49,090 bases of DNA from an uncultured candidatus Brocadiaceae bacterium (GCA_964370795.1 CAYJME010000002.1:9220-58309), one strand, 5' to 3'. Shown: positions 33,949 to 49,090, counted from the first letter of the stretch. The notes: generated by a model from the letters alone, not told the origin. Made by a program: numbers and translations.

Positions 33949-34604
33949 TCAAATGGTTCTTCCATAATGAGGAGCTCTCATCCTTACCTTCATCTTCTCG
34001 AACAACACATTCATATCTGCGCCTTTACCCAGGATTCCATCTAGCCGCTTATTTAATATTTGCTCATTACCGGTTTTAGCAAACGCATCTGATCCGGCAA
34101 TCGCCGATTGTTGCACATAATCGCCATCTTTCGTGACAAAAAACATTGTATCTATAACCCCAGCCAGAAACTCATCTCCACGGTGGTTAATAATATTCAA
34201 CAAATGATACTTCCCCTCTCCCCATCCATAGCGAGGGGGTGTTCCAAAGGTAACAATGTCCAACTGCACCCGCCGAATTTTTTGTAAGTACGCATCAAAT
34301 TTTGAAATATCTATTCCACCCTCACTGGCAATAGTCAAAAGCCTGTCAACTCCTGGTGATTGACCTAAAAAGTTTGTCATGAGCGCAAATACCTGACCGG
34401 CATGGCTATGCCCTAATAATAACACCCGTTCTCCCAATGAGTATAAGAAGTCGTGGGTCGGGAGCTAATATATTCCTGAGGAGTAAGATCAGCTTTGACT
34501 GTACATTTAATACAAGACAAGATAATAAAAAAAACACAAAAAGAACTGTAATAATATCTCCACATATTATTTCCTTTAAACTCCATTTTAGAAATATTAT
34601 TCAT
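33949..34604 (-). pseudogene. Possible frameshifted or truncated lipoprotein alpha/beta-hydrolase (lipase-like) remnant
   Basis: ORF 34413..34604 encodes only a hydrophobic leader ending ILSC. ORF 33949..34437 is in another frame and starts at TTG, right at a nucleophile-elbow-like VLLLGHSHAGQV, followed by FGTPPRYGW. The 60-100 aa that normally precede the elbow in alpha/beta-hydrolases are missing. Confidence 0.35.
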
Positions 34605-35014
34605 GAGTTTCTGAGTTCCGGATTTAAAAAGAACGAAAAATGTCTTTACCTACAACTCCTGGCGCTCTTCCGACTTGTTCGGGTCAGGTGTTCAGCCAAA
34701 CGATTAGGACACGTGTCATTTTACAATGAAATTATTACTTTTTTTCTTTTTCATCCTCTGGCTTTTTACCAACCCCTCTCAGGTTAACGAATTTGTTTAG
34801 CAAATCAAACCAAAAAGGAGCGCCCTGGGATATTGCCAGCGAAGTAAATATTATTCCTATACTTTATACGCCCAGCCCCTTGCATCGTCTGGAAACGTTC
34901 CTGGGTCGTCCTTTAAAGCTTTAGGGTTACATCCTCCATATCAATAGAAATTTTCAAAATACATTTTAAAAAATTGTAGTATGTTGATACTTTCAGAGTT
35001 TGAGGATTCTGCCA

Positions 35015-35461
35015 CTAGCCGCTCTTTTTCTCTCTGCTAATTTTTATATGAGCCTGGTCACGTTCGAAAACTCCGGTTTCTATTAAAACAAACGTCAGCT
35101 TATACTTATATTCTTCATCTTCAAATTTTATTATTTCATTCTCAGATATTCTTCCAGTTTGCTCATAGAGTACTTGCCTTTCACCGTCATTTAGATATTT
35201 TGTTACTTTCAAACCTGTAATTTTTGTCACATTCCAAAAACGAGGCCAGAATCGCATATCGCCTACTTCTATGGTCAAATTAAAATAATCTACTTTTAAA
35301 GGTGATTTTTCCCTTATTTTCAGATGCTGGTAACTCACTAAATCATTTAATGTTTTTTCCAAAGTCTTTTTACTTGCATTAAGTTCTTTTTCCCCCAATG
35401 CAGATAATTTTTTTTCACTCTTTTCCACCTCTTCTGTTGCTTTTACAGTAGCACTGCCCAT
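35015..35461 (-). CDS. Hypothetical protein (charged helical N-terminus, beta-rich C-terminal half)
   Basis: 148-aa ORF with protein-like composition, no signal peptide and no recognisable motif. The Shine-Dalgarno site is weak. It is the last ORF of the island direction-wise. Confidence 0.5.
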   Translation of the reverse strand: MGSATVKATEEVEKSEKKLSALGEKELNASKKTLEKTLNDLVSYQHLKIREKSPLKVDYFNLTIEVGDMRFWPRFWNVTKITGLKVTKYLNDGERQVLYEQTGRISENEIIKFEDEEYKYKLTFVLIETGVFERDQAHIKISREKKSG

Positions 35462-35631
35462 AACTATTAATGATTTTTCAAGTTCGTAAGTACTCTTTAT
35501 GAGAATTTTTTCTTGCTGACAGAAAGCCTTTTTGGTTTAACATTATTCCCATTCATGTTTTTCATTAAAGAATGTATCTATCTGGTCTTGCTAAACTCAT
35601 GGTTGCCATGCGTTTGTGCATTCAAAACTTA

Positions 35632-35656
35632 GGGAGCAGGTTGTAAACCTGCTCCC
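35632..35656 (-). terminator. Terminator-like hairpin, family copy 1
   Basis: GGGAGCAGG-TTGTAAA-CCTGCTCCC forms a perfect 9-bp GC-rich stem. It lies about 60 nt after the stop of ORF 35715..36890. On the minus strand it is followed by TAAGTTTTG. It is 22/25 identical to 42615-42639. Confidence 0.5.
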
Positions 35657-35714
35657 CACAAGAGTAATTTAAAATAAACACACAAACCTTTTTTCAAAGA
35701 ATAATCATATACTA

Positions 35715-36890
35715 TCATTGCTTTTCCGGAAATTTAAAACCAATATAGGTACCTGAACTGATTCCCATAAGCGCCAATAATTCTTTTGGAAATTCTGGCA
35801 TTGTAAGGACATTTAATACTGACGAAATAAAAATAATCCCAAGGACAACAGTCCAAGCTGCTATCTGGAAGCGGTAAAAGCTAATCCCATTTGCATCACT
35901 AAGTATATCTGTAAAAAATCCTTCCGAAGGCACGGAATTTACCGTAGAACTAAATCCCTGAATCTCACTCTGAACTTGATTAAGCCGAACGGTTTTTTCT
36001 GATAATTCTTTTTTAAGGTCACTTAGATTTGCAGGGGGTGGATTCGCGTTGATAGCATTATTAAGATTGGTAACTTCCGCTTGCAATTTTGCCTCTTCCA
36101 CCTGATGAGTTTTAAGCTGACCGTCTGAATCATTTCGTTTACTGAAATCAATAATCGTAGCCCCCAACATGGTGCTCGCACTAATGCCTATAAGCATAAG
36201 CACTGACGACGTAAGCGTACCATAAGCAGTCGTGACCATCCAAATAAAGACATAAGAAGCGATTACCAGGAAAAACCAGAATGCCATTTGTGTACGGGCA
36301 AGGCTAAAGGGTCTCCTGTTCTGTTTTCCCTTTCGATTATTTCCTGCGGGCTGCGTGCCAGCGTCACGCAACATATCGCTGTAAATGGCGAACATAACAA
36401 ACAGCCCAATTGAGAGACCCAAAATAACTATATAAGTCCAAAACCAATTACTAAGTATAACAGTAAGTCTGTGTTTTTTAATATCCGTCTCTAATGGTTT
36501 ATTCTCAAGCCCTACTGTAATAGCAATGTCTTTCGAGAAACCTTTTGGTTTTCCAAGTAAACTATCCCATGATTTCTCAGATTCGGGAGTACGCTTAAGG
36601 TCAAAAATAATCTGTTCATTTTTACCACCTACAAGCCTTGAAGGGATGCCTTTTATTGGATATCCATCCAGGTATAGTATAATTTTTGAAAGTTCATTTT
36701 TGGCTTCAGTTAATAATCCTGAAAGATTCTTTACCGTAATGGTAATGGAATTAGAAAGTTCACACTCCCCCACAACTTCAGTGACTCGGGGTTCAGATAT
36801 ATCCTGAGCATATACGCTATGTATAGCTATGATCCCTATTCCAAAAAACATCAGAAAATTTAAGATAAACGTGAGTTTATTCTTGTACAT
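35715..36890 (-). CDS. Polytopic membrane protein with extracytoplasmic beta-rich domain and an internal coiled-coil loop
   Basis: 391 aa with a GGAGGGA Shine-Dalgarno site. The signal or anchor helix ends VYAQD, followed by a ~120-aa domain. Three TM helices come next, then a ~75-aa heptad-like segment (QVEEAKLQAEVTNLNNAI...LSEKTVRLNQVQSEIQ), then two more TM helices. I cannot name a family. Confidence 0.75.
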   Translation of the reverse strand: MYKNKLTFILNFLMFFGIGIIAIHSVYAQDISEPRVTEVVGECELSNSITITVKNLSGLLTEAKNELSKIILYLDGYPIKGIPSRLVGGKNEQIIFDLKRTPESEKSWDSLLGKPKGFSKDIAITVGLENKPLETDIKKHRLTVILSNWFWTYIVILGLSIGLFVMFAIYSDMLRDAGTQPAGNNRKGKQNRRPFSLARTQMAFWFFLVIASYVFIWMVTTAYGTLTSSVLMLIGISASTMLGATIIDFSKRNDSDGQLKTHQVEEAKLQAEVTNLNNAINANPPPANLSDLKKELSEKTVRLNQVQSEIQGFSSTVNSVPSEGFFTDILSDANGISFYRFQIAAWTVVLGIIFISSVLNVLTMPEFPKELLALMGISSGTYIGFKFPEKQ

Positions 36891-36974
36891 TATAATTCCC
36901 TCCCTGAGCTTTACACCCTGTCATCAGCGGTGTGTAGCTTCATGTAAATTTTACTATAAATTTAGTTTTTTGAA

Positions 36975-36998
36975 AAAACCCTGTAAAAATAGGGTTTT
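36975..36998 (-). terminator. Terminator-like hairpin after trypsin-like protease gene
   Basis: AAAACCCT (36975-36982) pairs with AGGGTTTT (36991-36998) around an 8-nt loop. On the minus-strand transcript the stem runs into UUUUUU. Confidence 0.45.
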
Positions 36999-37118
36999 AA
37001 AGTTGTGGGTAGGAACGAAGGATTTGCCCGCATCAAACACACCCCTAAAGCCCTTATTAGAGGGGACCTTTGCTGTTTTGGCAAAATAGTTGTCATTTCC
37101 GTATTTTATAGTTACATA

Positions 37119-38300
37119 CTATCCAATATCCTCAAAACCTTTAAAATTAAAATTCCGTCCGGGAATATACGATAATCGCAAAAAAAATGACTTCGCATCA
37201 ACGGCATACCCGTGTTGCAAATCCAGGTTATGGAGAAAATGAAAGCCCAGTAAACGGACTCCATTCCCTTTTGAAGAATTAATAAATACGGGAGAGCCAC
37301 TATCGCCTTCGACAGTTTCGACATCACCCGTATACCTATATTTCCAAACAAATCCATAATCCATTCTTGCACCACCCAAGATAGGCGGTGAAAAGAAATC
37401 CACGCCGTCCATTAAATCAATATCCAGGCACTGAGCACCATCATTACGTTCAACCCATAGTAATCCGTTGGTATTTGTATCACGAATAGCAGCGTGAATA
37501 TCTTCGCTTGTGGCAATCTTGCCATCAAACCCACGAGGCCATAAGGTTTTCTCTGAAACAAATTCTTTTGGTATTTTAAAAAGCATGGCATCAGTAATGT
37601 GACTGTTTTTCATTATGTTTGTAGGGAGAAAACTATCCGAATAAATTTTAAACCATTGTCTCCCATGAAAACCTAAGGCACGATCACCATCGGGAGATCT
37701 ATAATTACCATTGGATACATCAATAAACACGTGGCCTGCGCTCGTTGCCCAATGGGTTCTGCCATTGTCCATAACAAGAAGTGATCCAACAGTGCCGATC
37801 ATTACCTTTTCTCCATCCTTAAAAGTCCCTGTATTTTCAGACACAGTTGAACGTCCAAAACCAAACCTTCTTCCTACATCGATGCGTTCAGCCGTAGGCC
37901 AATTTTGTTTCAATGTAGTCGAAAGGCTCGGTTGACCAACTTCCACGACATCAAGCAAAACACGTATTTTACCCTCACCAGGAATACATATAACCAGATA
38001 TTTGGGGATTCTCTCTCTTCTGGACAAATTATCAGGACGACGTTTTTTGTCGACAAAAACTTTGATACAAAGTCCACCTGCAGATTTTGATAGTGGCGCA
38101 TAGCGTCTTTCTTTTTCCTTAAACTTACGACCAATTCCAAGCCCACACACTCCAGGTAATTGTGCAAACCTATGAGAAGCTGTCTGATAAGCTATTTTTA
38201 AGTCAGGATATCTCCTCAACCACATATTTATCTGCCTACCAGGACGATAGTAATTCCTTTCATCAGATTGCTTCAATGAACGTTTTTTTACTGCACACAT
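37119..38300 (-). CDS. Trypsin-fold (S1/PA clan) serine peptidase with ~160-aa N-terminal extension, no signal peptide
   Basis: 393 aa. The ordered triad contexts are TSAGH190VF, ITD237AMLFKIP and EGDS334GSPVF. The H-D and D-S spacings are 47 and 97 residues, close to chymotrypsin numbering. Its start is 13 nt after the upstream lipoprotein stop. Confidence 0.8.
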   Translation of the reverse strand: MCAVKKRSLKQSDERNYYRPGRQINMWLRRYPDLKIAYQTASHRFAQLPGVCGLGIGRKFKEKERRYAPLSKSAGGLCIKVFVDKKRRPDNLSRRERIPKYLVICIPGEGKIRVLLDVVEVGQPSLSTTLKQNWPTAERIDVGRRFGFGRSTVSENTGTFKDGEKVMIGTVGSLLVMDNGRTHWATSAGHVFIDVSNGNYRSPDGDRALGFHGRQWFKIYSDSFLPTNIMKNSHITDAMLFKIPKEFVSEKTLWPRGFDGKIATSEDIHAAIRDTNTNGLLWVERNDGAQCLDIDLMDGVDFFSPPILGGARMDYGFVWKYRYTGDVETVEGDSGSPVFINSSKGNGVRLLGFHFLHNLDLQHGYAVDAKSFFLRLSYIPGRNFNFKGFEDIG

Positions 38301-38313
38301 GCCACTTCTCGCA

Positions 38314-39810
38314 TTAGTAAAGATCGCTAATAGGTAACTGAATGATTATTACAACACCTTTGTCGGGAAATTCTACTTGTATTATTTCTTTGTTGGTAAT
38401 TTTATCCTTACCGAGCGAATTCTGTATCCACTCTTTGAATTTATCCTCTTTTTTTTCGTCTGGAGTAAGGTCGCGCGGAAGATTACCAATAGTAATTGTA
38501 GTTGTGTTTGTCTTCTTATCAGCCTTTATCCTCTCTTTAAAGACATTAGTCAATTCAGGGCTAAAATATTTATCAAGACCCGTTCTTAAAGTTTCTTCTA
38601 TCTTACCTTTTGCTTGCTCTATCGGATCTTTTCCACCATCTCCACCTGTAGTTTGTGAACCTTCAAATTCTGCAAGCCTCACTGTTGCTGGCAGGATAAA
38701 TACATCCGTCGTGGCATTAAAAGCAATCATCGTAAATGGTGGGCATGGTATAAACGCCATATCCTGACGAATCCACGGTGCTTGTGACTGCAATAGGAAT
38801 GAACTGAATGCTACATCTTCATCTGGTCCGGCAACTATACCACTATATTTTAGCCATTGTTTTATTTCGCGCGGTTTTAGAACAGGATACAAACCCGGCT
38901 GTGCAATTTTTACTTCTGCAATCTTAAAAACAAGCATATTACCCAAATAATCCTTTATTTCTTCCGGCTTAGATACACCAATTTCTCTGGCTTCCGCTCT
39001 AAAACCGGCCGGCTTTAACATCTTTGAAATTGAAGGCACAGGAGGCAAACCGGCCACGAGCGGAGCCCATGTTGTAACAATACCCGATGCAACTTCAGAG
39101 GCCTTTTCAAACTGATTTATTACATAGGGCACTAGGTTTGAATTGTCCACCTTATTAGAAAATACCTCTGCTGCCCAGCCGTTGCGGAGTTTCGTTTCTA
39201 TCTCCGCGCTACCCAATCCCGTATGCGGTTGAATAATATATTGCTCTTCGAAATCTGGCAAATATACCACATCCATACGGTCTCCAAGGCGTGTCACAGG
39301 ATCGGTGGTATTAATAAAACCTGTCTGTGCATGCAACTCGCTTGGTGGTTTCGCTTCCGGTTGTGGTTGTGGTTGTTCCTTTGGTTTTTCTCCAGTTTCT
39401 GCCCCACCGGCTGTTCCTTTTTCTTCCTTTACCCCTGCAGCAGCTTTTTGTTCATGTTCTCTGCCGGACAATGTTAAAGCAAGTGCCTGGGTAACCGATA
39501 ACTTTTCAGGTAACGCTTTTTTCAACCAAGTCGGTGCATTTTCCGGTTTATCTACCACATATCCCTTTGTACTTTCGTCATAGTGAAAACTTATGAGTGC
39601 AACCCTTTGAGCAACTGGTACTGATTGTTTTAAATGGAGAAACGGGCGCGGGAGATAATAGCGGACACCTTTCATCGAGTCAGCCTTTTTTTGCTGTTCA
39701 TCGGTCCAATTCGAGTATTGCGTTGGTGTCGGTACCTTCACGTAATCGAGACGTGCACAACCAAACATTACTAACACAAACAGTAAAAGCACAGACAAAA
39801 ACATTCGCAT
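38314..39810 (-). CDS. Large lipoprotein of unknown function with Pro/Gln/Glu/Lys-rich linker
   Basis: ATG 39810 is preceded by GAGGAGG. The leader MRMFLSVLLLFVLVMFGC is a lipoprotein-type signal ending G-C. A low-complexity KPKEQPQPQPEAKPP segment is present. About 498 aa, with no motif I can name. Confidence 0.75.
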   Translation of the reverse strand: MRMFLSVLLLFVLVMFGCARLDYVKVPTPTQYSNWTDEQQKKADSMKGVRYYLPRPFLHLKQSVPVAQRVALISFHYDESTKGYVVDKPENAPTWLKKALPEKLSVTQALALTLSGREHEQKAAAGVKEEKGTAGGAETGEKPKEQPQPQPEAKPPSELHAQTGFINTTDPVTRLGDRMDVVYLPDFEEQYIIQPHTGLGSAEIETKLRNGWAAEVFSNKVDNSNLVPYVINQFEKASEVASGIVTTWAPLVAGLPPVPSISKMLKPAGFRAEAREIGVSKPEEIKDYLGNMLVFKIAEVKIAQPGLYPVLKPREIKQWLKYSGIVAGPDEDVAFSSFLLQSQAPWIRQDMAFIPCPPFTMIAFNATTDVFILPATVRLAEFEGSQTTGGDGGKDPIEQAKGKIEETLRTGLDKYFSPELTNVFKERIKADKKTNTTTITIGNLPRDLTPDEKKEDKFKEWIQNSLGKDKITNKEIIQVEFPDKGVVIIIQLPISDLY

Positions 39811-40064
39811 AATATATACCCTCCTCACCCAAACAAGTCGGAAAAAATATCAATACCCACAAACCATTCTTTAACGTTTCAACAGCTACCATTTCTTACG
39901 ATCATGTTAATTGCTTTAAGTACAGTATCATAAATACCCTAGCACTGCAAAGCCGCAATTAAATTCTTCAGGCAAAAGAAACAACCCTCAAAGTCCTTCC
40001 CGGTCTAAAGGAGATTTCCCGTATCAAAGGGAGTGAAGGAGTATAAAACAAATGGCAAACACCG

Positions 40065-40114
40065 GCGATTACATTTTCAGGCGTTCTTTTCTTGCACCTG
40101 TCAGCGCCTATCGC
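40065..40114 (-). terminator. Possible terminator (nested GC stems) after C11 peptidase gene
   Basis: GCGAT (40065-40069) pairs with ATCGC (40110-40114), and AGGCG (40079-40083) pairs with CGCCT (40105-40109). On the minus strand this is followed by T-rich GTTTGCCATTTGTTTTAT. Confidence 0.3.
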
Positions 40115-40156
40115 GCAAGGTTCGCTGATTACCATATGTGTGGACTTAAGCATCTC

Positions 40157-41362
40157 CTATGCTTCGAATTGAGCTTCTAAGAACACTTTCCACCGTCCGT
40201 TCTTGCTGAAGGATAGATCGCTGTAATCCGGCGCATAGTCCTCCTTACGCGGAAAATAAATCGAGACTCCTTTTGCCCTCGCGACATTATTCCCGCACGT
40301 GGCATTTCGAACTACAAGACTATCCCTGTTTGCAGGATCCAGAGCATTCGTAATCTTGTTAGCGACATCCCTTACTGCTGCATTTTGAGGTATACGCTGA
40401 ATGATTTGCTTTGCGAAATCACCAAGATCAATATACTCCGGCATCTCGAATTTCTGAGCACGATCGCGTGCCAGACTAACGGCGCCAGCCACATTGCTGA
40501 GGTCAGCAAGAAGGGCATCGGCCAACTCGCTCACCAATGCTGACACAGCTTGAATTTGACTAAGATCCAAGGCAGATTGTGTGGCCGTTTCCCCCGTCTT
40601 TTGATAGTATTTCTGATATTCATCAACGATCGTCTTTGTCAAATCAGAAGGACTCATAGTTGGTTTAGCCACCAACAACTTTAAAATTGCCGCGTATGGC
40701 CAACCTGCATTAGGCTCAGTCTCCTCGGAACCAACCATGAAGTTTGCTGTTTCCTTTAACTCGTATGCAATCTCCATCATATTCATCAGACAAGCGTCAC
40801 AACCGAGGATATCGAGTTTTTGGCCGTTCGGTAGCGCATTGAGTATTCCATTACGTAGTTCCTGATTGTCAAGGTAATCGTGCGATCCGCAATCTATAGC
40901 AATAGCACGTGCTTCAGCAGGGCGGTTGTGAACCTTCAGCACGGTGGTACGGAACAGCGCACGTTTGATTCTGTTTAGCTTGGCCGCTGCTTGCGGTTTG
41001 ACTAAGCGAATGTTGGCATAATTGTAATCAGAAGGCAGATTTTCCCAACCACCGCCATGGTTCCACACATCGAGCAAGTACCGCTGTGCCGGATAATTTT
41101 TTATTCCCCACTGGATAAACTCTGTTAAAATTTTGGGATCACCGCAATTTACACCGGGTAATTTCTGAGCTACCATTAACTTCCCTTTCTCAACCCGGTA
41201 GCGGGTAGTCTCGTTTTCCTCTGTATCGAACTGGACGATAACATTCACGTCGGCTGTCGAACCAACCTGCTTCATTTCTTCCAAATCATCCTTGCCGGCA
41301 CCTTCCAAGTTGTTATCTCCTGCCATGTAAACCAGCCATGTCCATTGTGCAATTTTATTCAT
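40157..41362 (-). CDS. Clostripain-family (C11) cysteine peptidase, no signal peptide
   Basis: ATG 41362 is preceded by AAGGAG with 8-nt spacing. The C11 hallmarks are WTWLVYMAGDNNLEG, catalytic His context LLDVWNH102GGGW and Cys context LGCDAC191LMNM. Confidence 0.85.
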   Translation of the reverse strand: MNKIAQWTWLVYMAGDNNLEGAGKDDLEEMKQVGSTADVNVIVQFDTEENETTRYRVEKGKLMVAQKLPGVNCGDPKILTEFIQWGIKNYPAQRYLLDVWNHGGGWENLPSDYNYANIRLVKPQAAAKLNRIKRALFRTTVLKVHNRPAEARAIAIDCGSHDYLDNQELRNGILNALPNGQKLDILGCDACLMNMMEIAYELKETANFMVGSEETEPNAGWPYAAILKLLVAKPTMSPSDLTKTIVDEYQKYYQKTGETATQSALDLSQIQAVSALVSELADALLADLSNVAGAVSLARDRAQKFEMPEYIDLGDFAKQIIQRIPQNAAVRDVANKITNALDPANRDSLVVRNATCGNNVARAKGVSIYFPRKEDYAPDYSDLSFSKNGRWKVFLEAQFEA

Positions 41363-41428
41363 AGTAAAATTCTCCTTTTTCTGTTGAATAGGATTTAACC
41401 AAAAATGAAACATATTAAATTTAGAGGG

Positions 41429-41689
41429 TCATTGCGCCATACCACAGGTTGCTTTATACAGGGCGGTAAAATTATATATGCCGGATATTATATACAAAAC
41501 TGCTCCGATAAAAACTAACGATGCAGCTACTTTAAACCATTTTTTCCAGTTAATGATTTTTCCTAATTCTTTATCAGCTAAAAGATATTTGGGGAGCCAA
41601 TACATAACTGCACCAGACGCAAAAATGAAAAACAGAAAACCAACCCATTGTCCAATCAATAGTTCATTTGTTTTATTTTCGGCATACAA
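41429..41689 (-). CDS. Small two-TM membrane protein
   Basis: 86 aa with a TTG start 9 nt after the upstream stop. Two clear hydrophobic helices are present (WVGFLFFIFASGAVMYWL and VAASLVFIGAVLYIISGIY). No Shine-Dalgarno site, so the call is moderate. Confidence 0.5.
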   Translation of the reverse strand: MYAENKTNELLIGQWVGFLFFIFASGAVMYWLPKYLLADKELGKIINWKKWFKVAASLVFIGAVLYIISGIYNFTALYKATCGMAQ

Positions 41690-41698
41690 AGCTTGCTA

Positions 41699-42439
41699 TT
41701 AAAGTTCCTGCACATACACCTTGCCTTCTTTATACTTCTGACAGCCAATACTTTTATGCCTGCATTCAAGAACCTCTTTCATTCCTTTTAAATTTTCAAG
41801 CATATGTTCACGCAATCCTGGCTCAACGAGACCTAAAAAGTTACCTATTACAACACCACCGCCTGACGGTTCACTGTATAATTCATAAATTACTTTAACT
41901 TCATTTGTCGTGATCGGAATAAGCTCCCATTTACCATATAACTTCTCAATCCTATTATACTCAGGATCTTTCGGGACAAGATCATATGCGCTTGTGATGC
42001 TGATTGTTACCACCTTTGTTGTAATATCTTGCAATCTCGTATCACGCACAACAGAATCATATTTGCTTGTAATAAAAACCCCCTTTTTTTCTGTTTTAAA
42101 TTGTTTGACACTCTCATTTTTAGTATCATCTTCAGAAACTTTCCTTCCTTCAACACAATTATGCATCCATAAATGACTCACTTCTGTGTCTTCCAATAAT
42201 CGAATGATGCTATTTAAAGTTGTTTTAATGGTAACAACACCTTTACAATCTTGAAATTTAGCGCCTTCTACGATGCTTTTTCTGTTAAACATTTCAACTC
42301 CATTGCTATTTTCCATCGGAACTTTTTCCCACCCTGTATCTGGTTTGATCAAAAAAGGATTTTGAATTCCCTGCGCATGTGCATTTGCAGGAATAGCCAA
42401 TAAAAAAACTGCTAGTATTAAAGACCACCTTATATTCAT
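41699..42439 (-). CDS. Secreted START/SRPBCC-like (lipid-binding fold) protein
   Basis: The internal ATG at 42439 gives a Sec-type signal peptide, MNIRWSLILAVFLLAIPANAHA. The mature part resembles START domains (GWEKVPMENSNGVEMFNRK..., LLEDTEVSHLWMHNC, YGKWELIPITTNEVKVIYELYSEPSGG). The longer ORF to 42643 would read through a terminator-like hairpin. Confidence 0.55.
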   Translation of the reverse strand: MNIRWSLILAVFLLAIPANAHAQGIQNPFLIKPDTGWEKVPMENSNGVEMFNRKSIVEGAKFQDCKGVVTIKTTLNSIIRLLEDTEVSHLWMHNCVEGRKVSEDDTKNESVKQFKTEKKGVFITSKYDSVVRDTRLQDITTKVVTISITSAYDLVPKDPEYNRIEKLYGKWELIPITTNEVKVIYELYSEPSGGGVVIGNFLGLVEPGLREHMLENLKGMKEVLECRHKSIGCQKYKEGKVYVQEL

Positions 42440-42612
42440 GGACACCTTCACAAGAAAATTCCCTCCATAATTTATAGTGAATAGGTAAATTTTCACCAAA
42501 TTAGCACAATTTTTATTTTTCAAAATAGCGCGATGCATTCTAGCCACTATAAGACGAGTAATATCACTATTGCCATAAGCAACTTTTATCATATCTATGA
42601 CAGCATTAAAAT

Positions 42613-42641
42613 GCGGGAACAGGTTGCAAACCCGCTCCCGC
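42613..42641 (-). terminator. Terminator-like hairpin, family copy 2
   Basis: GCGGGAACAGG-TTGCAAA-CCCGCTCCCGC. The two mismatches are A-C on the plus strand but become G-U wobbles in a minus-strand transcript. It lies about 35 nt after the stop at 42674 and is followed on the minus strand by ATTTTAAT. Confidence 0.5.
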
Positions 42642-42673
42642 ATTGGAGCTGTACCCTTAAATATAGTTAACGT

Positions 42674-43186
42674 TTAAGCAGCAACCTTTATGGCGATATT
42701 TGCAGCAGTAATTGCAACATTAATAACTGTATCCAGAATATCTTTTGCCAGTTGACGTTGAGCAATTTCCTGATCAGCACCCTTCAGAAAATTCGATATT
42801 TGGGAAATTTCATCATCAGGAAGTAATTGAGGAATATTTTCAAATACTTCGTTTTCTGTTATTAACCCTAACGCATCTCCTAATGCAGTTCTTTGATCCT
42901 CAATATTCAATGCAGTCGCTTTAGACAATGGATGAGTACTAGATGCTGCATTAACCATTAACTCCGTAAGCGCATTATCCATTGATACAATGGCATTTCT
43001 CTTTTCTTTATTATTTGTTAAAGTTTTTGAATTAGCTTCCGAAACAAACTTTTTTAAAAGCTCAATCACAGCATTTTCATCACTTTTATCAGCTTTATTT
43101 TTATTATCTTTAATCAGTTCAAACAAATTTACAAAAATAGGTACAAGGTCTTTGCCTATTTTTATTAAGTCATTTAAATTTGACAT
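42674..43186 (-). CDS. Hypothetical all-helical protein with hydrophobic C-terminal segment
   Basis: 170 aa with an AGGAGG Shine-Dalgarno site at 7-nt spacing and no signal peptide. The C-terminus is ILDTVINVAITAANIAIKVAA. The coding sequence is very AT-rich. Confidence 0.6.
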   Translation of the reverse strand: MSNLNDLIKIGKDLVPIFVNLFELIKDNKNKADKSDENAVIELLKKFVSEANSKTLTNNKEKRNAIVSMDNALTELMVNAASSTHPLSKATALNIEDQRTALGDALGLITENEVFENIPQLLPDDEISQISNFLKGADQEIAQRQLAKDILDTVINVAITAANIAIKVAA

Positions 43187-43206
43187 GATAGTAGCCTCCT
43201 GTCTTA

Positions 43207-43866
43207 TTAGCTAACTTTTTTATATACTTTTATTAATATATCACGGGACCGTTCAATCGTTTTCTGAATCCTCTCATTTTCCTTTCTTCTTTCTTCTTCT
43301 GACCTCTTGTCAATTTGTCCAAGTTCTTCTTGTAGACTGCGGATGGCAGAAACAGTCATAACAACGCCATCAATATCAAAACTCCTAAGGACAAATTCAG
43401 CATCAGAACTACTTAAATACTTTACAATTATGTCATTGTTTTCTTTTAACGTTTTTACTGCATCTATGAGTGCTTTGTATGATTTCAATATTATTTCTTT
43501 TCTCGCTTCGTTTATTTGAATATCTGAAAGGTTTATTACCTCCTCAAGGTTGATTTCTGCTAATTTCATGGAGAGCAATCTTTGATTTCCAGTTACATTT
43601 GCATCAACTTGAAGTAAGACCTCAGCCTTCTTTAAATCACGCTCCCATGTTAGCAAATCAAGTTCACGTTTTTTGTCAGCCTTAAGCTGATCATTTAAAG
43701 AAATTTCTATATCATTTTTATTTTCCTCTAATAAATTTTTTAATTTACTGTAATATTCATCTTGCTTTTTACTTAATTCAGTCACATTTGATCTGCTCAT
43801 AGCACAACCTGTTGTCAAACTTAAGGACAGAAAAATACAGAAAATTATTATTTGTTTGACATTCAT
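43207..43866 (-). CDS. Coiled-coil lipoprotein of unknown function
   Basis: 219 aa. The leader IIIFCIFLSLSLTTGC ends G-C, and the rest is charged and heptad-like. Its ATG overlaps the upstream stop (ATGA at 43863-43866). Confidence 0.7.
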   Translation of the reverse strand: MNVKQIIIFCIFLSLSLTTGCAMSRSNVTELSKKQDEYYSKLKNLLEENKNDIEISLNDQLKADKKRELDLLTWERDLKKAEVLLQVDANVTGNQRLLSMKLAEINLEEVINLSDIQINEARKEIILKSYKALIDAVKTLKENNDIIVKYLSSSDAEFVLRSFDIDGVVMTVSAIRSLQEELGQIDKRSEEERRKENERIQKTIERSRDILIKVYKKVS

Positions 43867-44576
43867 TTTTTATTCTCCTTATCAATTTCATCGATAGCAT
43901 CAGTAATATTTTTTTGGAGTGCATTTACCTGGTCTTGTGTAGGTGACACATCAATAGCTAACCACGAATCTACTTTTCCGTGCATTACTTTCATCAAAGC
44001 TACTTGTTTTCTGAGAATTTCAAGCATAAGATGTGTCCTTTCAGCAGTATTAGCCTCATTCTCAAAAGCTGCTTTGTATATAGACTCTGTTTTTTCAACT
44101 TCTAGAGGTTTAGGAGGCAATGTAGACTTAATGGTTTTTAAATCATTGCGGCAGTGTATTAATGATGCTTTTAATTTTTCATTATCAGTAGAATTTATTT
44201 TTTCTTCCAGTCTTTTGATTTCTGCATCAAAATCTATAAATGCATAATCTATCCATGGTTGAATGTTCTTATCATAACTTAGGAATAGATTGTCAGCATT
44301 GACAGTAGTACTCGTCCCAGGAATAGCAGCCTCTATAGCTTTTTGCGCAATGCGCATCCTTCCCGTTTCAATAATACGATCCTGTTTTTGTTTGTGAAAC
44401 TGATCAAAAGATGTTTGTAGGTTAACAACTGCGTCATCAACAGCCTTAATCAGCTCTATCTGTGCCTTTGACGCATTTTTTACTTCAATAGGCGTAGCAC
44501 ATCCTTGCATCAACATCGCAGTAGCTAGCAAGCTTGGCAATGCAATGCATGAAACGTGTTGTTTTCGTCTTACCAT
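43863..44576 (-). CDS. Coiled-coil lipoprotein of unknown function
   Basis: ATG 44576 is preceded by AAGGAG at 9-nt spacing. The leader is MVRRKQHVSCIALPSLLATAMLMQGC, and the remainder is helical and charged. The ORF-track start at 44603 is a TTG. Confidence 0.7.
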   Translation of the reverse strand: MVRRKQHVSCIALPSLLATAMLMQGCATPIEVKNASKAQIELIKAVDDAVVNLQTSFDQFHKQKQDRIIETGRMRIAQKAIEAAIPGTSTTVNADNLFLSYDKNIQPWIDYAFIDFDAEIKRLEEKINSTDNEKLKASLIHCRNDLKTIKSTLPPKPLEVEKTESIYKAAFENEANTAERTHLMLEILRKQVALMKVMHGKVDSWLAIDVSPTQDQVNALQKNITDAIDEIDKENKK

Positions 44577-44663
44577 AACGTTTCTCTCCTTTAATTTATT
44601 CAAACTTGTATGAGTCCATCTATCGGTTTTGGTAGAGTTGAAAGGTTACAACTATTTCACCAT

Positions 44664-45503
44664 CTAAATAGTAAATGGCACTTGTTTCTCAAATGTACGG
44701 TTAATCTCCCCTACGCGGAAATAATTGGGCGACTGATAGGGAGGCATACGACGACCTATGGCACGCCAGAAGGCGCGATATCCCTTTCTTTTATATTTGC
44801 CTTCATTCCAAACATTCAAGAGCTTTGAGGTAAACAAACCATTAAACGTACCATCAGCAGAATATTGGTTATCCTGACAACCCGATATGAGAAGCACAGA
44901 TGCCTTTACTGCATCACTCGACTCCTTTAATTTTGCATCTTTCAATATAGGGTCATAAAACTTTTTATTATCCCTGTATACCCGTGGTGCAATTTCCAAT
45001 GGCATACACCGATATCGGGTTTCCGGGGAAGTCCCTGTCATACCGAGAGAGTTCATTATCGATCGAAAATGCACATCCTTTGTTACCGTACCGCTGTGAC
45101 AACTATCGGAAAACACTACAACGCGCACACCCTGTGCAAATTTCCCCAGTAAGGCGTAAATCTCATCGTCTACAAGTTCGCCATCGTACAAACACCACGT
45201 CTCATCCTGGGCATCGTCCTCATCGTCGTTTAAATCAGGAAGTTGACCGCCATGACCGGAATAGCTCAGCATAAAGATATCACCGGATGTTAACGTACTT
45301 GTCGCCTTATTAACCGAATCAAACATGTTTGCCCTTGTGGCTGCTTTCGTAAGGAGGGTTTTTACATCAAAACCTTTCGATTTTACAATCTCCGCCATAT
45401 CATTTGCATCATTTTCGCATGCATTCAGTTCCCCCGACCATCCACTATATTTTGCGGGATCAACTGCGTTTAAACCGATTGTTAACGCCATGCCTTTTGC
45501 CAT
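44664..45503 (-). CDS. Caspase-like (C14, orthocaspase/metacaspase-type) cysteine peptidase, single domain
   Basis: 279 aa with an AGGAGG Shine-Dalgarno site. The His context is FMLSYSGH84GG and the Cys context VVVFSDSC135HSGT. An acidic insert (LNDDEDDAQDETW) lies between them. No signal peptide. Confidence 0.9.
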   Translation of the reverse strand: MAKGMALTIGLNAVDPAKYSGWSGELNACENDANDMAEIVKSKGFDVKTLLTKAATRANMFDSVNKATSTLTSGDIFMLSYSGHGGQLPDLNDDEDDAQDETWCLYDGELVDDEIYALLGKFAQGVRVVVFSDSCHSGTVTKDVHFRSIMNSLGMTGTSPETRYRCMPLEIAPRVYRDNKKFYDPILKDAKLKESSDAVKASVLLISGCQDNQYSADGTFNGLFTSKLLNVWNEGKYKRKGYRAFWRAIGRRMPPYQSPNYFRVGEINRTFEKQVPFTI

Positions 45504-45787
45504 GTTACACCTCCTGTATTATTTTTCATGAATTTTAAGTAAAGTTTAGTATTGTTTTGTAAATACTTACTTTTTACAATTTTTTAACAACCCCTTTTAT
45601 GGTAATTTATTTACAGCTTGTTGCGTTATGCATTTTAATACTTTTTTTTAATAAAATGCAAACTATAAAACATTTGTTCGTATTATTTTTATTCCTCCTT
45701 TCCAGTACAATCTGTATTGTTTTTGATTTTTTTATTAAACAAGCTTTTTGTTACTAATTTTATAGTTACCTCTAGCAGATATCACAA

Positions 45788-48379
45788 TTAAACTATTTCT
45801 TCCAACAACTTTTCAGAAACACATTCTTTTATAATTTCACTCAAATTTACGCCAAACACCTCCGAAAATTTTCTATAAGTTTCTGCCTGTGCAAAGTAAT
45901 TGAGATGATAGACATGTTGATTTGGATCGAACGTAAAGTTGTTTCCACTATTAACGCCTCTTGGCCACGGAACTACCATTTTGTCTGTATCGACTATGAG
46001 ATCATTGGGATCGCCAAAAAAGGCATCGGCAATTCTATCAATGATATCGTCTTTGATACCGCCCTGGAGAGCACCCGTCGGCTCATAGTTTGATCCAATG
46101 GTATTGTAGGTAACCGCCCCATTCAAGATCTCGCTGCTTTGGTTCAATTTTTTAATAAAATCTGAACACGGATTCATTGCCCAAACACCAGGCACTGCAT
46201 GCGGGTCTTCTAATTTTGAAGCGGCAAACTTCACCAGCCCTCCTACAATACTAAAGAATATCTTAAACGCAATATTGGGCGTTAAAAAAAAGACATTTGT
46301 CAAAAGGTTTATCATCCGGGAAAGTGAAGTCCATTTCCCTGGATTTGCCAAATTGGTTCCCCCGGCAGGACATGCAACCATGAGCACCTTATCAACATAA
46401 CTGCAACCACCAACAATCTCCACAAAAGACCTTAATACAAGCCCACCACGGCTGTGCGTTATACAGTCGAATTTCAATCCGGTATCTAAAAGACCTTGAT
46501 TCTTTAGTTCCTCCAACATGTTATTGGCATTCTCTTCGGGAGTCTTGGATAAGGTAAAGTGGTCGTATCCCAAAATAAGGGGATAGCGATTTGTTAACGT
46601 TTCCAGGATTTTCGGCTGCACATATTCATACCCACCTGCAAGCGAACTAGCCGTACCATGAATAAAAAGAAGCGCCCTTTTGTTATCTTTCACCAAATCT
46701 TTGATACTACCCCAATCTGAGATGGGGCTGGACTGTGTAAGACTTTCGACAAAGCCTTTACGTGGGTCAATTCGTTTAAAACCTTCATTCATCACGTTTT
46801 TTTCATATGCATTTAACATGGCACAGATAGCAGCAGAACTACCATCCTGTATCCAATCTTTTGCGAATTTAAAGACGTACACCACATTACTCCACAGACC
46901 TCTTGTCGTTGTATCCTGCACCTTAAATGGAACAGTAAATGATCTAATATCTTCTTTATCACTGATTATTAAATCTTTACCATGTGGATTCTCTACATCT
47001 TTAAAGTGCCAAGTCCATACTCCATCTTCGTACGATAAGAGCACAGCCTCTTCGTCTGGATTACATCTGATCGCAAGCTGAATTGGTTTCACAGCCTCTT
47101 CAACTCCAAGCGAGCGCTGTTCATTTGGGCAAAATTCGATGGCGTGGGTCATTTGGAAATCTTTGTTTTCCAGGAAATCCAGGCATCCTGGTTGGTAAGT
47201 GTCACCCAGTGCATCACGACGCCCTTCCGAATCTTTTGATTTCGCCAATTCCGTGAAGTCTCTTACCGTCCCGACAAATTCAGACGTAGAAGGCAGGACA
47301 ATATCCCGGGAAATGGCACATTTCGAGCGTTTTGTGGAAACGAATATGCGTTTTGCGGCCTTAGAGAATATGGCAGGAGAACCTTCCTTCTTTTTCAAGT
47401 CTTGATCAGAATCGGCGGCTGGTTTCTCAGTGACAGCACAACCTTTTGCCGGATGTCCTTCTTTGTATACGAGAAGATGGCCATACTCACAGGTTGGCTC
47501 ATCCTTTAATGAAGCGGAAAGAAACCTCATAGCCCTTAATTCCTTGTTACCATTTAACTGAGGAATCTGGCTGAAAGAGTTAAACGCAAGACTATTTCTC
47601 ACTTTTGTTATAAGGTCTTGACAGGTTATCAACCCTCTCGTATCCCGTATCGTTTTACACAGGTTATACGTAAAGGCGCCGTTGTAATCATTATTGATAT
47701 TCGCGTCAACTGAGGTTTGGTCATCCATACAACCGGCTAATAATACGTGCTTCGCTTCGGCATTATTCCCGCCATCTCCGGTTTTTTTGTCCTCCTTGAT
47801 TTTAGAACCAAGACGATTAACCTTTACTGATTTACTATAACTCCTCAATGCAATATCGGCTGGCGGCTCTATAAAGCGGGGCTGCAGTTTTCTCTCCCCC
47901 ATTGGGATTCCTAATTCAGACGTTAGGAATTCAAGGTCACGGGTTGCGGTACCCGAATGGCACGAATCAAGACAAACGGTGAGATAAACCCCCTTGGGCA
48001 AGCGGTCAATGATATCGTTAAAGTCATCGTCAAGCAGGTAGGAATCCGGGTTCCTGAAATCCATATCGTATAAACACAAGATTTCGTCCATACCGTCATC
48101 CAGTTCATCGCCATTGCGGTCTTGAATCTGTGAACCATGTCCTGAAAAGTGAAATAACAGTAAATCTCCAGCCTGTACGCCGTCTAAAAGCCAATCGAAC
48201 CGATTCATCAGGTTATTCCGGGTAACCGCCTCGTCCGTAAGGGAGCGAATTTCTTCAGAGGAAAATCCATAGAAACTGGTGAGTATATCTGCCATATTGC
48301 GGACGTCATTAATACACCCATTGAGGGGCCTGACATTTTTGTATTTATTAACCCCAACTAATAATGCCTTTTTTGCCAT
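45788..48379 (-). CDS. Caspase-like (C14) domain fused to a C-terminal alpha/beta-hydrolase (lipase/esterase-like) domain
   Basis: ATG 48379 is preceded by AAGGAG at 8-nt spacing, and the TTG at 48403 is the longest ORF. The N-terminus shows LLLFHFSGHG and VCLDSCHSGT. The C-terminus shows ALLFIHGTASS and the elbow CITHSRGG (Ser codon at 46451-46453). VACPAGGT, NDLIVDTD and HVYHLNYF are further candidate hydrolase residues. Confidence 0.9.
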   Translation of the reverse strand: MAKKALLVGVNKYKNVRPLNGCINDVRNMADILTSFYGFSSEEIRSLTDEAVTRNNLMNRFDWLLDGVQAGDLLLFHFSGHGSQIQDRNGDELDDGMDEILCLYDMDFRNPDSYLLDDDFNDIIDRLPKGVYLTVCLDSCHSGTATRDLEFLTSELGIPMGERKLQPRFIEPPADIALRSYSKSVKVNRLGSKIKEDKKTGDGGNNAEAKHVLLAGCMDDQTSVDANINNDYNGAFTYNLCKTIRDTRGLITCQDLITKVRNSLAFNSFSQIPQLNGNKELRAMRFLSASLKDEPTCEYGHLLVYKEGHPAKGCAVTEKPAADSDQDLKKKEGSPAIFSKAAKRIFVSTKRSKCAISRDIVLPSTSEFVGTVRDFTELAKSKDSEGRRDALGDTYQPGCLDFLENKDFQMTHAIEFCPNEQRSLGVEEAVKPIQLAIRCNPDEEAVLLSYEDGVWTWHFKDVENPHGKDLIISDKEDIRSFTVPFKVQDTTTRGLWSNVVYVFKFAKDWIQDGSSAAICAMLNAYEKNVMNEGFKRIDPRKGFVESLTQSSPISDWGSIKDLVKDNKRALLFIHGTASSLAGGYEYVQPKILETLTNRYPLILGYDHFTLSKTPEENANNMLEELKNQGLLDTGLKFDCITHSRGGLVLRSFVEIVGGCSYVDKVLMVACPAGGTNLANPGKWTSLSRMINLLTNVFFLTPNIAFKIFFSIVGGLVKFAASKLEDPHAVPGVWAMNPCSDFIKKLNQSSEILNGAVTYNTIGSNYEPTGALQGGIKDDIIDRIADAFFGDPNDLIVDTDKMVVPWPRGVNSGNNFTFDPNQHVYHLNYFAQAETYRKFSEVFGVNLSEIIKECVSEKLLEEIV

Positions 48380-48419
48380 AGTCCTTTCTCCTTTTTTAGT
48401 CAAAAAATAGTGGATAGCT

Positions 48420-48530
48420 TCACTTACAATGACGCTTGAAATATCATTGGAAGGACAACAGTTCGAAGCAAACTCGCCTTTTCATACTTCTTGGTAACCA
48501 GTATGTTCGTAAGAGTTAAAATGTAAGTGA
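48420..48530. promoter_or_regulatory. Candidate operator dyad between wHTH-like gene and caspase-hydrolase gene
   Basis: TCACTTACA (48420-48428) and TGTAAGTGA (48522-48530) are exact reverse complements. They bracket most of the 133-bp intergenic spacer. An inner CATACT/AGTATG hairpin lies around GGTAACC (48484-48506). Confidence 0.3.
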
Positions 48531-48536
48531 CATTTT

Positions 48537-48830
48537 TTACAAATTTTTCTTTACGAACGACTTTATCTTCTCATACTCATCCCGGTTGATCTGATAATAG
48601 GTATGAACATTTTTGCCTTGCTGTTCCACCAGAAGACCTTTATCAACAAGGTCTTCAAGCGCTTCTTTTACCACATTTACCTGGTGTTTAATTTTTTGTT
48701 CCAACAACCACCATTCTATAATTCCATCAATGCTATCCCTGGCATCCGGATGTTCAACCAGGTATGACAGGATTTCATTGCAAATGTGTGACTTTTCATT
48801 ATTGTTGAGATTGTCAGGGGTGGTTTTCAC
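48537..48830 (-). CDS. Small winged-helix-like protein (putative regulator or adaptor)
   Basis: 97 aa with a GTG start after GAGAGGA. The helical N-terminal half (ICNEILSYLVEHPDARDSIDGIIEWW) and the C-terminal EALEDLVDKGLLVEQQGKNVHTYYQIN resemble the recognition helix plus wing of MarR/DUF-type wHTH proteins. Confidence 0.55.
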   Translation of the reverse strand: MKTTPDNLNNNEKSHICNEILSYLVEHPDARDSIDGIIEWWLLEQKIKHQVNVVKEALEDLVDKGLLVEQQGKNVHTYYQINRDEYEKIKSFVKKNL

Positions 48831-49090
48831 TCATTATTCCTCTCTCGTATTATCGCATGAAAACTTTTATTGATAATTTCGTATACCTTCAGAAAGATAT
48901 ATTTCAGGTCGCTCCTCCGGAGCTTTCTTTATATTTGCTTTTTATTTCTACAAACAGATCGCCCCGCCTGGGGCTTATTCGCTATTTTCTTTTATTATTC
49001 CATGATATTCTATCGGTTTGGATACTTGACGATTGACTGATAATCCATAGCGCAGCAAGCCGCAACCAATTCTCCTTTATGGAAGCGGGG

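Follow-up and report, generated by a model that had tools for sequence, protein, structure and literature searches.

A metacaspase joined to a lipase-like hydrolase in a Brocadiaceae bacterium: a putative single-chain protease-effector module

The stretch of DNA analysed here (hereafter the window) comprises 49,090 nucleotides of an uncultured candidatus Brocadiaceae bacterium (GCA_964370795.1 CAYJME010000002.1:9220-58309). Towards its end lies a complete gene (45788..48379, minus strand) that encodes 863 amino acids (aa) and fuses a metacaspase, a DUF7362-like domain and a DUF7379 alpha/beta-hydrolase in one chain. All features of this gene are on the minus strand, and positions are counted from the first letter of the window. 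With moderate confidence, we read the product as a protease-effector module that resides in the cytoplasm as a single chain and whose lipase stays latent until the metacaspase licenses it by cuts in the pro-domain. The protein is a compact, C14-first, sensor-less, fused form of an already described caspase/alpha-beta-hydrolase system and not a new kind of system.

The longest reading of the open reading frame (ORF) starts at a TTG (45788..48403, minus strand, 871 aa), and the ATG at 48379 gives the 863-aa product. This ATG is likely the start of the gene, because homologous fusion proteins begin with MAKKALL and an AGGAG ribosome-binding site is located 8 nt upstream of it. The stop codon occupies 45788-45790, and a promoter and terminator scan gave results at chance level. 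The motifs on which the original prediction relied were all found: LLLFHFSGHG (residues 73-82) and VCLDSCHSGT (135-144) in the caspase part, and ALLFIHGTASS (569-579), CITHSRGG (639-646), VACPAGGT (668-675), NDLIVDTD (792-799) and HVYHLNYF (822-829) in the hydrolase part, with the codon of the nucleophile Ser643 at 46451-46453 as predicted. The protein has no N-terminal signal peptide, since the chain opens directly with the first caspase strand.

Residues 1-283 (47531..48379) form a Peptidase_C14 (metacaspase) domain without an N-terminal prodomain. Pfam family PF00656 matches residues 3-277 (E 2.3e-35, 122.8 bits against a cut-off of 21.4), and among solved structures the yeast metacaspase Yca1 (4f6o) matches residues 3-279 with an E value of 9.7e-36, other metacaspases being matched as well. 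The motifs GCIND, SGHG and DSCHSGT and an acidic DGDE..DGMD loop are common to the fusion C14 domain and Yca1. Catalytic His81 (codon 48137..48139, motif HFSGHG) aligns with the catalytic-motif His of Yca1, and catalytic Cys140 (codon 47960..47962, motif DSCHSG) with the Yca1 Cys that is changed to Ala in 4f6p; both are invariant in 22/22 homologues. The Pfam match, the Yca1 alignment and this invariance bear out the C14 His-Cys dyad that had been proposed from its motifs. GC22xxD25, S79, D138 and the DGDE..DGMDE loop are conserved in the homologues and identical or nearly so in Yca1; by analogy with the structures of TbMCA2 and Yca1, they presumably are the S1-pocket and Ca2+ residues. Metacaspases are expected to cleave after Arg or Lys. 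With the type I metacaspases Yca1 (4f6o), Arabidopsis MC4 (6w8s) and Trypanosoma MCA2 (4afr), the domain shares 35-40% identity over the whole p20-p10 unit, as well as the dyad, the putative S1-pocket motifs and the acidic loop, whereas it differs from them by the missing prodomain and by ~580 extra C-terminal residues that include an enzyme domain. In PADLOC and NCBIfam scans, the fusion protein hit generic caspase models only, below threshold.

The enzyme domain at the other end of the chain (residues 561-845, 45845..46699) is a DUF7379 alpha/beta-hydrolase that resembles the family I lipases. DUF7379 (PF24096) matches residues 570-746 with an E value of 7.8e-47 (160.1 bits against a cut-off of 33). 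The oxyanion-hole HG motif (His574-Gly575, codons 46655..46660) is invariant in 22 homologues and in 37 diverse DUF7379 proteins. The nucleophile Ser643 (codon 46451..46453), located in a THSRGG elbow, is a Ser in 22/22 sequences of the fusion alignment (A1), and in alignment A5 the S, R, G and G of the elbow are each present in 50/50 sequences. The candidate catalytic acid Asp793 (codon 46001..46003, motif PNDLIVD) is invariant together with N792, and so is the candidate catalytic His825 (codon 45905..45907, motif YHLNYF). We take the xHSxGG elbow and the NDxxV acid motif to resemble those of family I lipases. Arg644 (codon 46448-46450), the residue next to the nucleophile (HS-R-GG), is an Arg in all DUF7379 proteins examined (50/50 and 22/22) and gives a third invariant Arg-Gly in the hydrolase; family I lipases vary at this position.

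A hydrophobic two-helix hairpin is found at the position of a lipase lid or cap (residues 680-722, 46214..46342; model helices 340-358 and 363-382). It holds the hydropathy maximum of the whole protein (1.69 on the Kyte-Doolittle scale, averaged over 19 residues). Neither a signal peptide nor a transmembrane helix had originally been seen; the former statement holds, but the latter has to be qualified by this strongly hydrophobic helical hairpin at ~680-722. The AlphaFold model, which covers residues 341-863 and was run with a 50-sequence alignment, has a mean predicted local distance difference test score (pLDDT) of 79.9 and a predicted template modelling score (pTM) of 0.80. The pLDDT is mostly 82-97 in the hydrolase core, where it falls to ~60-77 in the lid hairpin and in one loop further on, and 57-86 in the domain that precedes the hydrolase.

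When this two-domain model was searched against the PDB with Foldseek, matches were obtained to the hydrolase only. The top 47 listed matches, and 49/50 overall, are lipases or related lipid esterases. The best match is the Proteus mirabilis lipase 4hs9 (E 2.5e-9, template modelling (TM) score 0.58 to target), and further matches include Geobacillus L1 (1ku0), P. aeruginosa LipA (1ex9), BlEst2 (6wpy) and the Legionella phospholipase PlaB (6zth). At the profile level, the family matches the PDB lipases 7x2p (E 4.6e-7) and BlEst2 (E 3.2e-6) and, weakly, Burkholderia and Pseudomonas lipases (1qge, 1cvl, 1tah and 1ex9, E near 1e-2). The likeness to the family I lipases (4hs9, 1ex9, 1ku0) and BlEst2 is one of fold (Foldseek E 2.5e-9 to 1e-7, TM 0.45-0.63 to target), whereas identity to family I lipases amounts to 13-17% only. 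Family I lipases are moreover secreted, whereas the hydrolase of the fusion protein is predicted to be cytoplasmic and is joined to a protease; secretion is argued against by the absence of a signal peptide. BlEst2, which has been solved in its propeptide and mature forms (6wpx/6wpy), offers an example of a lipase held by a propeptide. The conclusion that the C-terminal domain is lipase-like at the level of the predicted fold stands, and the proposed Ser-Asp-His alpha/beta-hydrolase of lipase type is upheld by the DUF7379 match, the Foldseek results and the invariant triad.

The full C14+DUF7379 architecture occurs in ~37 sequence clusters (29-90% identity), mostly from Candidatus Brocadia and other Brocadiaceae; a few homologues are labelled Desulfobacula or Rhizobacter/Chlorobiales. 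In the databases, these proteins are named only 'caspase family protein' or 'DUF7379 domain-containing protein'. Because H81, C140, H574, G575, S643, D793 and H825 are invariant in the 22 full-length homologues (31-90% identical, mostly Brocadiaceae), both the metacaspase and the hydrolase look active, as far as conserved catalytic residues can tell.

The region between the two enzymes had been described as an unknown middle of ~280 aa. Instead, it consists of a variable linker of ~60 aa and a DUF7362-like domain. The linker (residues 284-342, 47354..47530) is charged, carries a degenerate Cys/His motif and is the least conserved part of alignment A1. In most fusion homologues the motif reads CEHGHPLVCKEGHPPKG, of which the window protein retains the degenerate form CEYGHLLVYKEGHPAKGC; CEHGHPLVCKEGHPPKG could be a small metal-binding knuckle. 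The beta-rich domain that follows (residues 343-560, 46700..47353) is a putative pro-domain, assigned by a weak Pfam match and by hhalign. DUF7362 (PF24062) matches residues 399-488 below threshold (24.4 bits against a cut-off of 27.6), and the profile of the domain matches the N-terminal domain of 110 other DUF7379 proteins with a probability of 98.7% (hhalign, E 3.2e-16, 132 columns). In a Pfam scan of 37 DUF7379 proteins, a set that overlaps with the hhalign comparison set, DUF7362 was matched in 21/37. A domain of the same type is also located N-terminal to DUF7379 where the peptidases are N-terminal (hhalign, probability 92.9%). A Wss1p/SprT-like metalloprotease identity of the middle region was considered and rejected, with E values of 0.03-0.16 only and no HExxH motif.

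The middle region belongs to the hydrolase as its N-terminal module and is not a spacer, since a homologous domain precedes DUF7379 elsewhere and remains with the hydrolase when the two enzymes are split over separate genes. The latter is seen in an Actinomycetota metagenome-assembled genome (MAG; locus L077, 4455-8295), where a 499-aa gene for a DUF7362-like domain plus DUF7379 overlaps the start of a 300-aa C14 gene: the DUF7362-like domain stays with the hydrolase and not with the caspase.

Two basic positions stand out in this domain as candidate cleavage sites. Site 1 has Lys468 as its basic P1 residue (codon 46976..46978) in a predicted loop (model 119-137), and site 2 is Arg493-Gly494 (TTRG, codons 46898..46903) in a predicted loop between model strands 138-143 and 158-166; both loops are of lower confidence in the model and lie between strands. 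Of the 22 sequences of the fusion subfamily, 14 have R and four have K at site 1; at site 2, R is present in 20/22 and the adjoining G in 21/22. The 110 non-fusion DUF7379 proteins show the same two positions, with Arg in 91/110 at site 1 (then G in 57, S in 16, T in 10 and A in 6) and Arg in 98/110 at site 2, followed by Gly in 92/110. In these proteins, the median distance from site 1 to site 2 is 29 residues, and ~69 residues separate site 2 from the HG strand behind it. When the ~238 columns are ranked by conservation, both Arg sites fall within the first 14, which otherwise are mostly hydrophobic positions of the core; the DUF7362-like domain is otherwise ~15% identical. To our knowledge, this conserved double-Arg pro-domain of the DUF7379 family has not been described before.

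The pairing of a DUF7379 hydrolase with a clan-CD peptidase recurs throughout the family. An exhaustive search (E<=1e-3) retrieved 2770 DUF7379 representatives at 50% identity, and 80 of the best 150 carry a clan-CD peptidase in the same chain. Among these best 150, CHAT is present in 76, C11 in nine (eight with both) and C14 in three, so the C14-first form of 860 aa accounts for only 3 of the 150. The architectures seen include DUF7362-DUF7379-TCAD7-DUF7363-CHAT, C11-CHAT-x-DUF7379, CHAT-x-DUF7379 and DUF7379-C11, with TCAD7 present in 9/37 sampled DUF7379 proteins. CHAT- and C11-type proteins share with the window protein the hydrolase family, a preceding DUF7362-like domain with an Arg-Gly site and a clan-CD peptidase in the chain; they differ in that the peptidase is CHAT and/or C11 and usually C-terminal, in their additional domains and in their length of 1100-1580 aa. 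Of five stand-alone DUF7379 genes examined, four have a CHAT gene (L081, L082 and L084) or a C14 gene (L077) behind them, and plasmid copies of DUF7379 reside inside proteins annotated as 'CHAT domain-containing' or as 'caspase family' proteins of ~1150 aa. In a Burkholderiales MAG (L071, 5786-12599), a C14 gene of 383 aa overlaps a 1933-aa ORF that holds DUF7379, an LCAT-like region, CHAT and TPR-S (sensor repeats).

Such pairing is not new to the literature. Kaur et al. (2020) reported that the caspase domain 'always' has a gene for an alpha/beta-hydrolase as its neighbour and that the two 'operate together' (PMC7159879). Their vWA-MoxR-VMAP ternary systems resemble the present case in the obligatory co-occurrence of a caspase-superfamily peptidase with an alpha/beta-hydrolase, and TCAD7 ('ternary complex associated domain 7') is found in DUF7379 proteins; the hydrolase of those systems, however, is encoded by a neighbouring gene, whereas the window protein joins it to an N-terminal true metacaspase. 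The novelty that the original prediction implied was therefore overstated, as the pairing was published in 2020 (PMC7159879) and the exact C14+DUF7379 architecture is already present in databases. A literature search on DUF7379 found no paper mentioning it, and one on metacaspases in anammox bacteria found nothing specific.

The closest characterised analogue is a pair of proteins from Lysobacter capsici AZ78. According to the preprint of Evans et al. (2025), LcCaspase cleaves LcHydrolase between Arg73 and Gly and between Arg117 and Gly, at R-G motifs conserved in 161 homologues; LcHydrolase is a latent death effector (zymogen), the cut fragments of which are toxic (PMC12642450). The likeness lies in a caspase-like Cys protease combined with a lipase-like alpha/beta-hydrolase; the two Arg-Gly motifs may have their counterpart in the two conserved Arg-small sites of the window family. 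The Lysobacter system consists of two proteins, whereas the window encodes one 863-aa chain with its candidate sites not at positions 73 and 117 but in a DUF7362-like domain of their own, ~75-100 residues before the hydrolase core.

From the recurrent clan-CD pairing, the conserved Arg sites and the doubly cleaved zymogen of Evans et al. (PMC12642450), it follows that a lipase held inactive until caspase-type cleavage fits better than the other option of the original prediction, a self-contained protease-plus-lipase effector. Parallel action, in which both enzymes would be effectors that attack cellular or foreign targets after the protein has been activated, with no cleavage of the hydrolase by the caspase, we consider rather unlikely. 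It would agree with the intact and invariant state of both active sites, with the description of a metacaspase-GDSL lipase-amidase fusion as a 'destructive weapon' (Asplund-Samuelsson et al. 2012, PMC3501461) and with the ability of effector-less caspase-like proteases to defend alone (PMC12642450). Yet it would leave unexplained why a near-constant DUF7362 domain with two conserved Arg-small sites precedes DUF7379 and why the hydrolase co-occurs consistently with clan-CD peptidases in several domain orders, and the characterised LcCaspase/LcHydrolase analogue works by cleavage. The comparison with patatin-like effectors of CBASS-type abortive infection (cyclic-oligonucleotide-based antiphage signalling) that accompanied the first description is sound as an analogy in the concept of a lipid-attacking suicide effector, and in this alone: CBASS effectors have a patatin fold and are activated by cyclic nucleotides instead of proteolysis, whereas the window protein has an alpha/beta-hydrolase fold.

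The gene products of the window were scanned by profile, leaving out the 86-aa ORF at 41429-41689 and a few other small ORFs. Within this scope, neither the fusion protein nor the scanned products include a patatin domain, a CD-NTase or another CBASS gene. The same scans gave no vWA, MoxR or VMAP match among the scanned products, and no sensor (STAND NTPase, WD40 or vWA-MoxR-VMAP) in the fusion protein or the scanned products. The lack of another sensor domain in the fusion protein would suit a reversed order of events, in which DUF7362-DUF7379 would respond to a signal (a lipid, an ester or a peptide) by sensing or processing it and would thereby activate the metacaspase, the latter being the real effector, which cleaves other proteins. 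Also in keeping with this order are the pTM of 0.80, which suggests a single rigid unit of middle and hydrolase domain, and the wording of Kaur et al., who say only that the two 'operate together' (PMC7159879). In the only tested pair, however, it is the hydrolase fragments that are toxic and the hydrolase on which the protease acts (PMC12642450), and the conserved basic sites are part of the pro-domain that belongs to the hydrolase itself. We regard this reversal as distinctly improbable.

Several points nevertheless weigh against a caspase-licensed lipase. Site 1 of the window protein is Lys-Asp and not Arg-Gly, and the Arg-Gly may be conserved for a structural reason and not as a bond to be cleaved. 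With ~297 aa and cuts at R73 and R117, LcHydrolase has no room for its sites in an N-terminal domain of ~200 aa as proposed here; it may belong to a different hydrolase family from DUF7379, the two being likened by description and not by sequence, and its own substrate is unknown ('lipases and oligopeptidases', PMC12642450). The proteases of Evans et al. are fused to sensors (STAND, beta-transducin), whereas the window protein has no sensor domain. Finally, the neighbourhood of the fusion gene is not conserved among the Brocadiaceae genomes examined, and gene context therefore gives no functional clue. Because of the differences in size and cut positions, the Evans mechanism serves as an analogy for the window protein and not as proof. 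LcHydrolase could also be read as a core-only DUF7379 protein cut between Arg and Gly of the HSRGG elbow, in which case R598 and R644 of the window protein, 46 residues apart, would correspond to R73 and R117, 44 residues apart. This reading was kept as a lead only, as R-G is present at the first position in just 12/154 family members.

The licensing of a latent lipase, which we prefer, would proceed as follows. The chain would combine three parts: an active, Arg/Lys-specific metacaspase (His81/Cys140), a DUF7362-like pro-domain with two basic sites that are exposed, and a DUF7379 serine hydrolase with a hydrophobic lid. The pro-domain would keep the lipase latent until the metacaspase is switched on and cuts at the Lys468 and Arg493-Gly494 sites, probably in trans between protomers. 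Ca2+ is an activator of type I metacaspases and hence the obvious candidate for the trigger, which is a guess from those enzymes. The cut would free or remodel the hydrolase, which would then attack an ester substrate, most likely a membrane lipid, and kill or arrest the cell by an abortive-infection or programmed-death logic. The analysis establishes the identities of the domains, the conserved catalytic residues, the homology of the middle domain, the repeated pairing of the hydrolase with clan-CD peptidases and the conserved Arg sites with their position in loops, whereas cleavage at Lys468 and Arg493, latency, the lipid substrate, the trigger and the biological role are inferred.

Other loci of the family show varied surroundings. 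In two Brocadia genomes, a calcineurin-like metallophosphoesterase gene is located directly upstream of the fusion gene (L001 1661-2908 and L003 8675-9868; the two copies are 56% identical), in L001 abutting it; metallophosphoesterase-like enzymes are among the protease-associated effectors (PMC12642450). Downstream of the fusion gene, L001 encodes a 1175-aa patatin-like protein and a DUF900 hydrolase. In a further Brocadia-type copy (L085 6524-9116), an apparent frameshift separates the C14 part (503 aa) from the DUF7379 part (371 aa); this copy adjoins genes for a ResIII helicase, HEPN plus nucleotidyltransferase and an N6_N4 methyltransferase, a defence-island-like context. The split pair of L077 precedes a phage-tail-sheath-like gene.

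This last gene, together with the Tle1-like lipase genes near the L081 locus gene, would be compatible with an exported or injected antibacterial toxin, carried by a contractile injection system or another secretion route and not directed at the producing cell. Lipases are common as interbacterial toxins, which makes such a role conceivable in general terms. We nonetheless hold it to be very unlikely: the protein has no signal peptide, no recognisable delivery or immunity gene lies beside the window gene, the association with injection genes was seen once only, and neighbourhoods differ in every genome examined.

Within the window itself, positions 1-34 kb are ordinary chromosome with genes for MnmG, RNase Y, IleRS, two GroEL proteins, Hsp20 and Lon. 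After the Lon/Hsp20/two-GroEL region, positions ~34000-49090 have a lower guanine-plus-cytosine content (0.31-0.39 between 42 and 46 kb) and mostly uncharacterised genes, three products of which are lipoprotein-like (lipoboxes LTTGC, LMQGC and MFGC); this part has the look of an acquired island. Another metacaspase gene, which stands alone (44664-45503, minus strand, 279 aa, Peptidase_C14 E 1.9e-28), is located 285 bp downstream of the fusion gene. Its product is 34% identical to the C14 domain of the fusion, and other Brocadiaceae loci do not have it beside the fusion. A C11 peptidase of clostripain type, encoded by a gene of its own (40157-41413, minus strand, E 8e-55), shares 33% identity over 423 aa with the C11 domain of the DUF7379+C11 fusion P0214; the island thus holds three genes for clan-CD peptidases in a span of 8 kb. 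The 393-aa product of 37119-38300 (minus strand) contains the motif 'GDSGSPVF' typical of trypsin-like serine peptidases, without a Pfam match at E<=1, and on this motif may be a fourth peptidase of the island. At 33949-34437 (minus strand), a 162-aa ORF with 'LLLGHSHAGQ...VTFGTPPRYG' resembles the elbow part of a lipase-type alpha/beta-hydrolase; it is without the N-terminal part and without a Pfam match, and may be a gene remnant. A conserved operon of the fusion gene with the second metacaspase, the lipoproteins and C11 was considered and dismissed, as none of these accompany the fusion gene in three other Brocadiaceae genomes (L001-L003).

The nearby lipoprotein genes, and the presence of the fusion gene at 55-90% identity across many Brocadiaceae assemblies, would be in line with a housekeeping role, such as turnover of membrane lipids or lipoproteins in anammox bacteria with C14 as a maturation protease. 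The module, however, is also found on plasmids and in phyla that are unrelated, as part of architectures that resemble conflict systems and include CHAT, TPR-S and TCAD7. The window neighbours are not conserved, and the gene lies in a low-GC region of mostly uncharacterised, peptidase-rich genes. We give a housekeeping role very little credence.

Returning to the caspase-licensed lipase, we tentatively put forward a bolder version, which seems to us possible rather than probable. The protein could be a self-contained, sensor-less death switch that excises a segment of ~25 residues (469-493) from the DUF7362 pro-domain upon a trigger, for instance Ca2+ influx after envelope damage, and thereby unleashes a membrane lipase, uniting initiator, cleavage sites and executioner in a single chain. 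DUF7362 would then serve generally as a pro-domain cleaved by caspases and would control thousands of DUF7379 lipases that have CHAT, C11 or C14 as partners, a family separate from and larger than the one studied so far.

If the proposed licensing is true, the caspase-activated-effector logic of one small hydrolase would extend to the very large DUF7379 family (~2770 clusters at 50% identity). The window protein would provide a minimal one-protein system, in which the protease, the cleavage sites and the lipase can all be mutated in a single construct, and which would be convenient for finding the trigger of a bacterial metacaspase and the target of the hydrolase. Anammox bacteria are slow-growing, aggregate-forming and of engineering importance; with this protein, the Brocadiaceae among them would gain a candidate programmed-death or abortive-infection factor.

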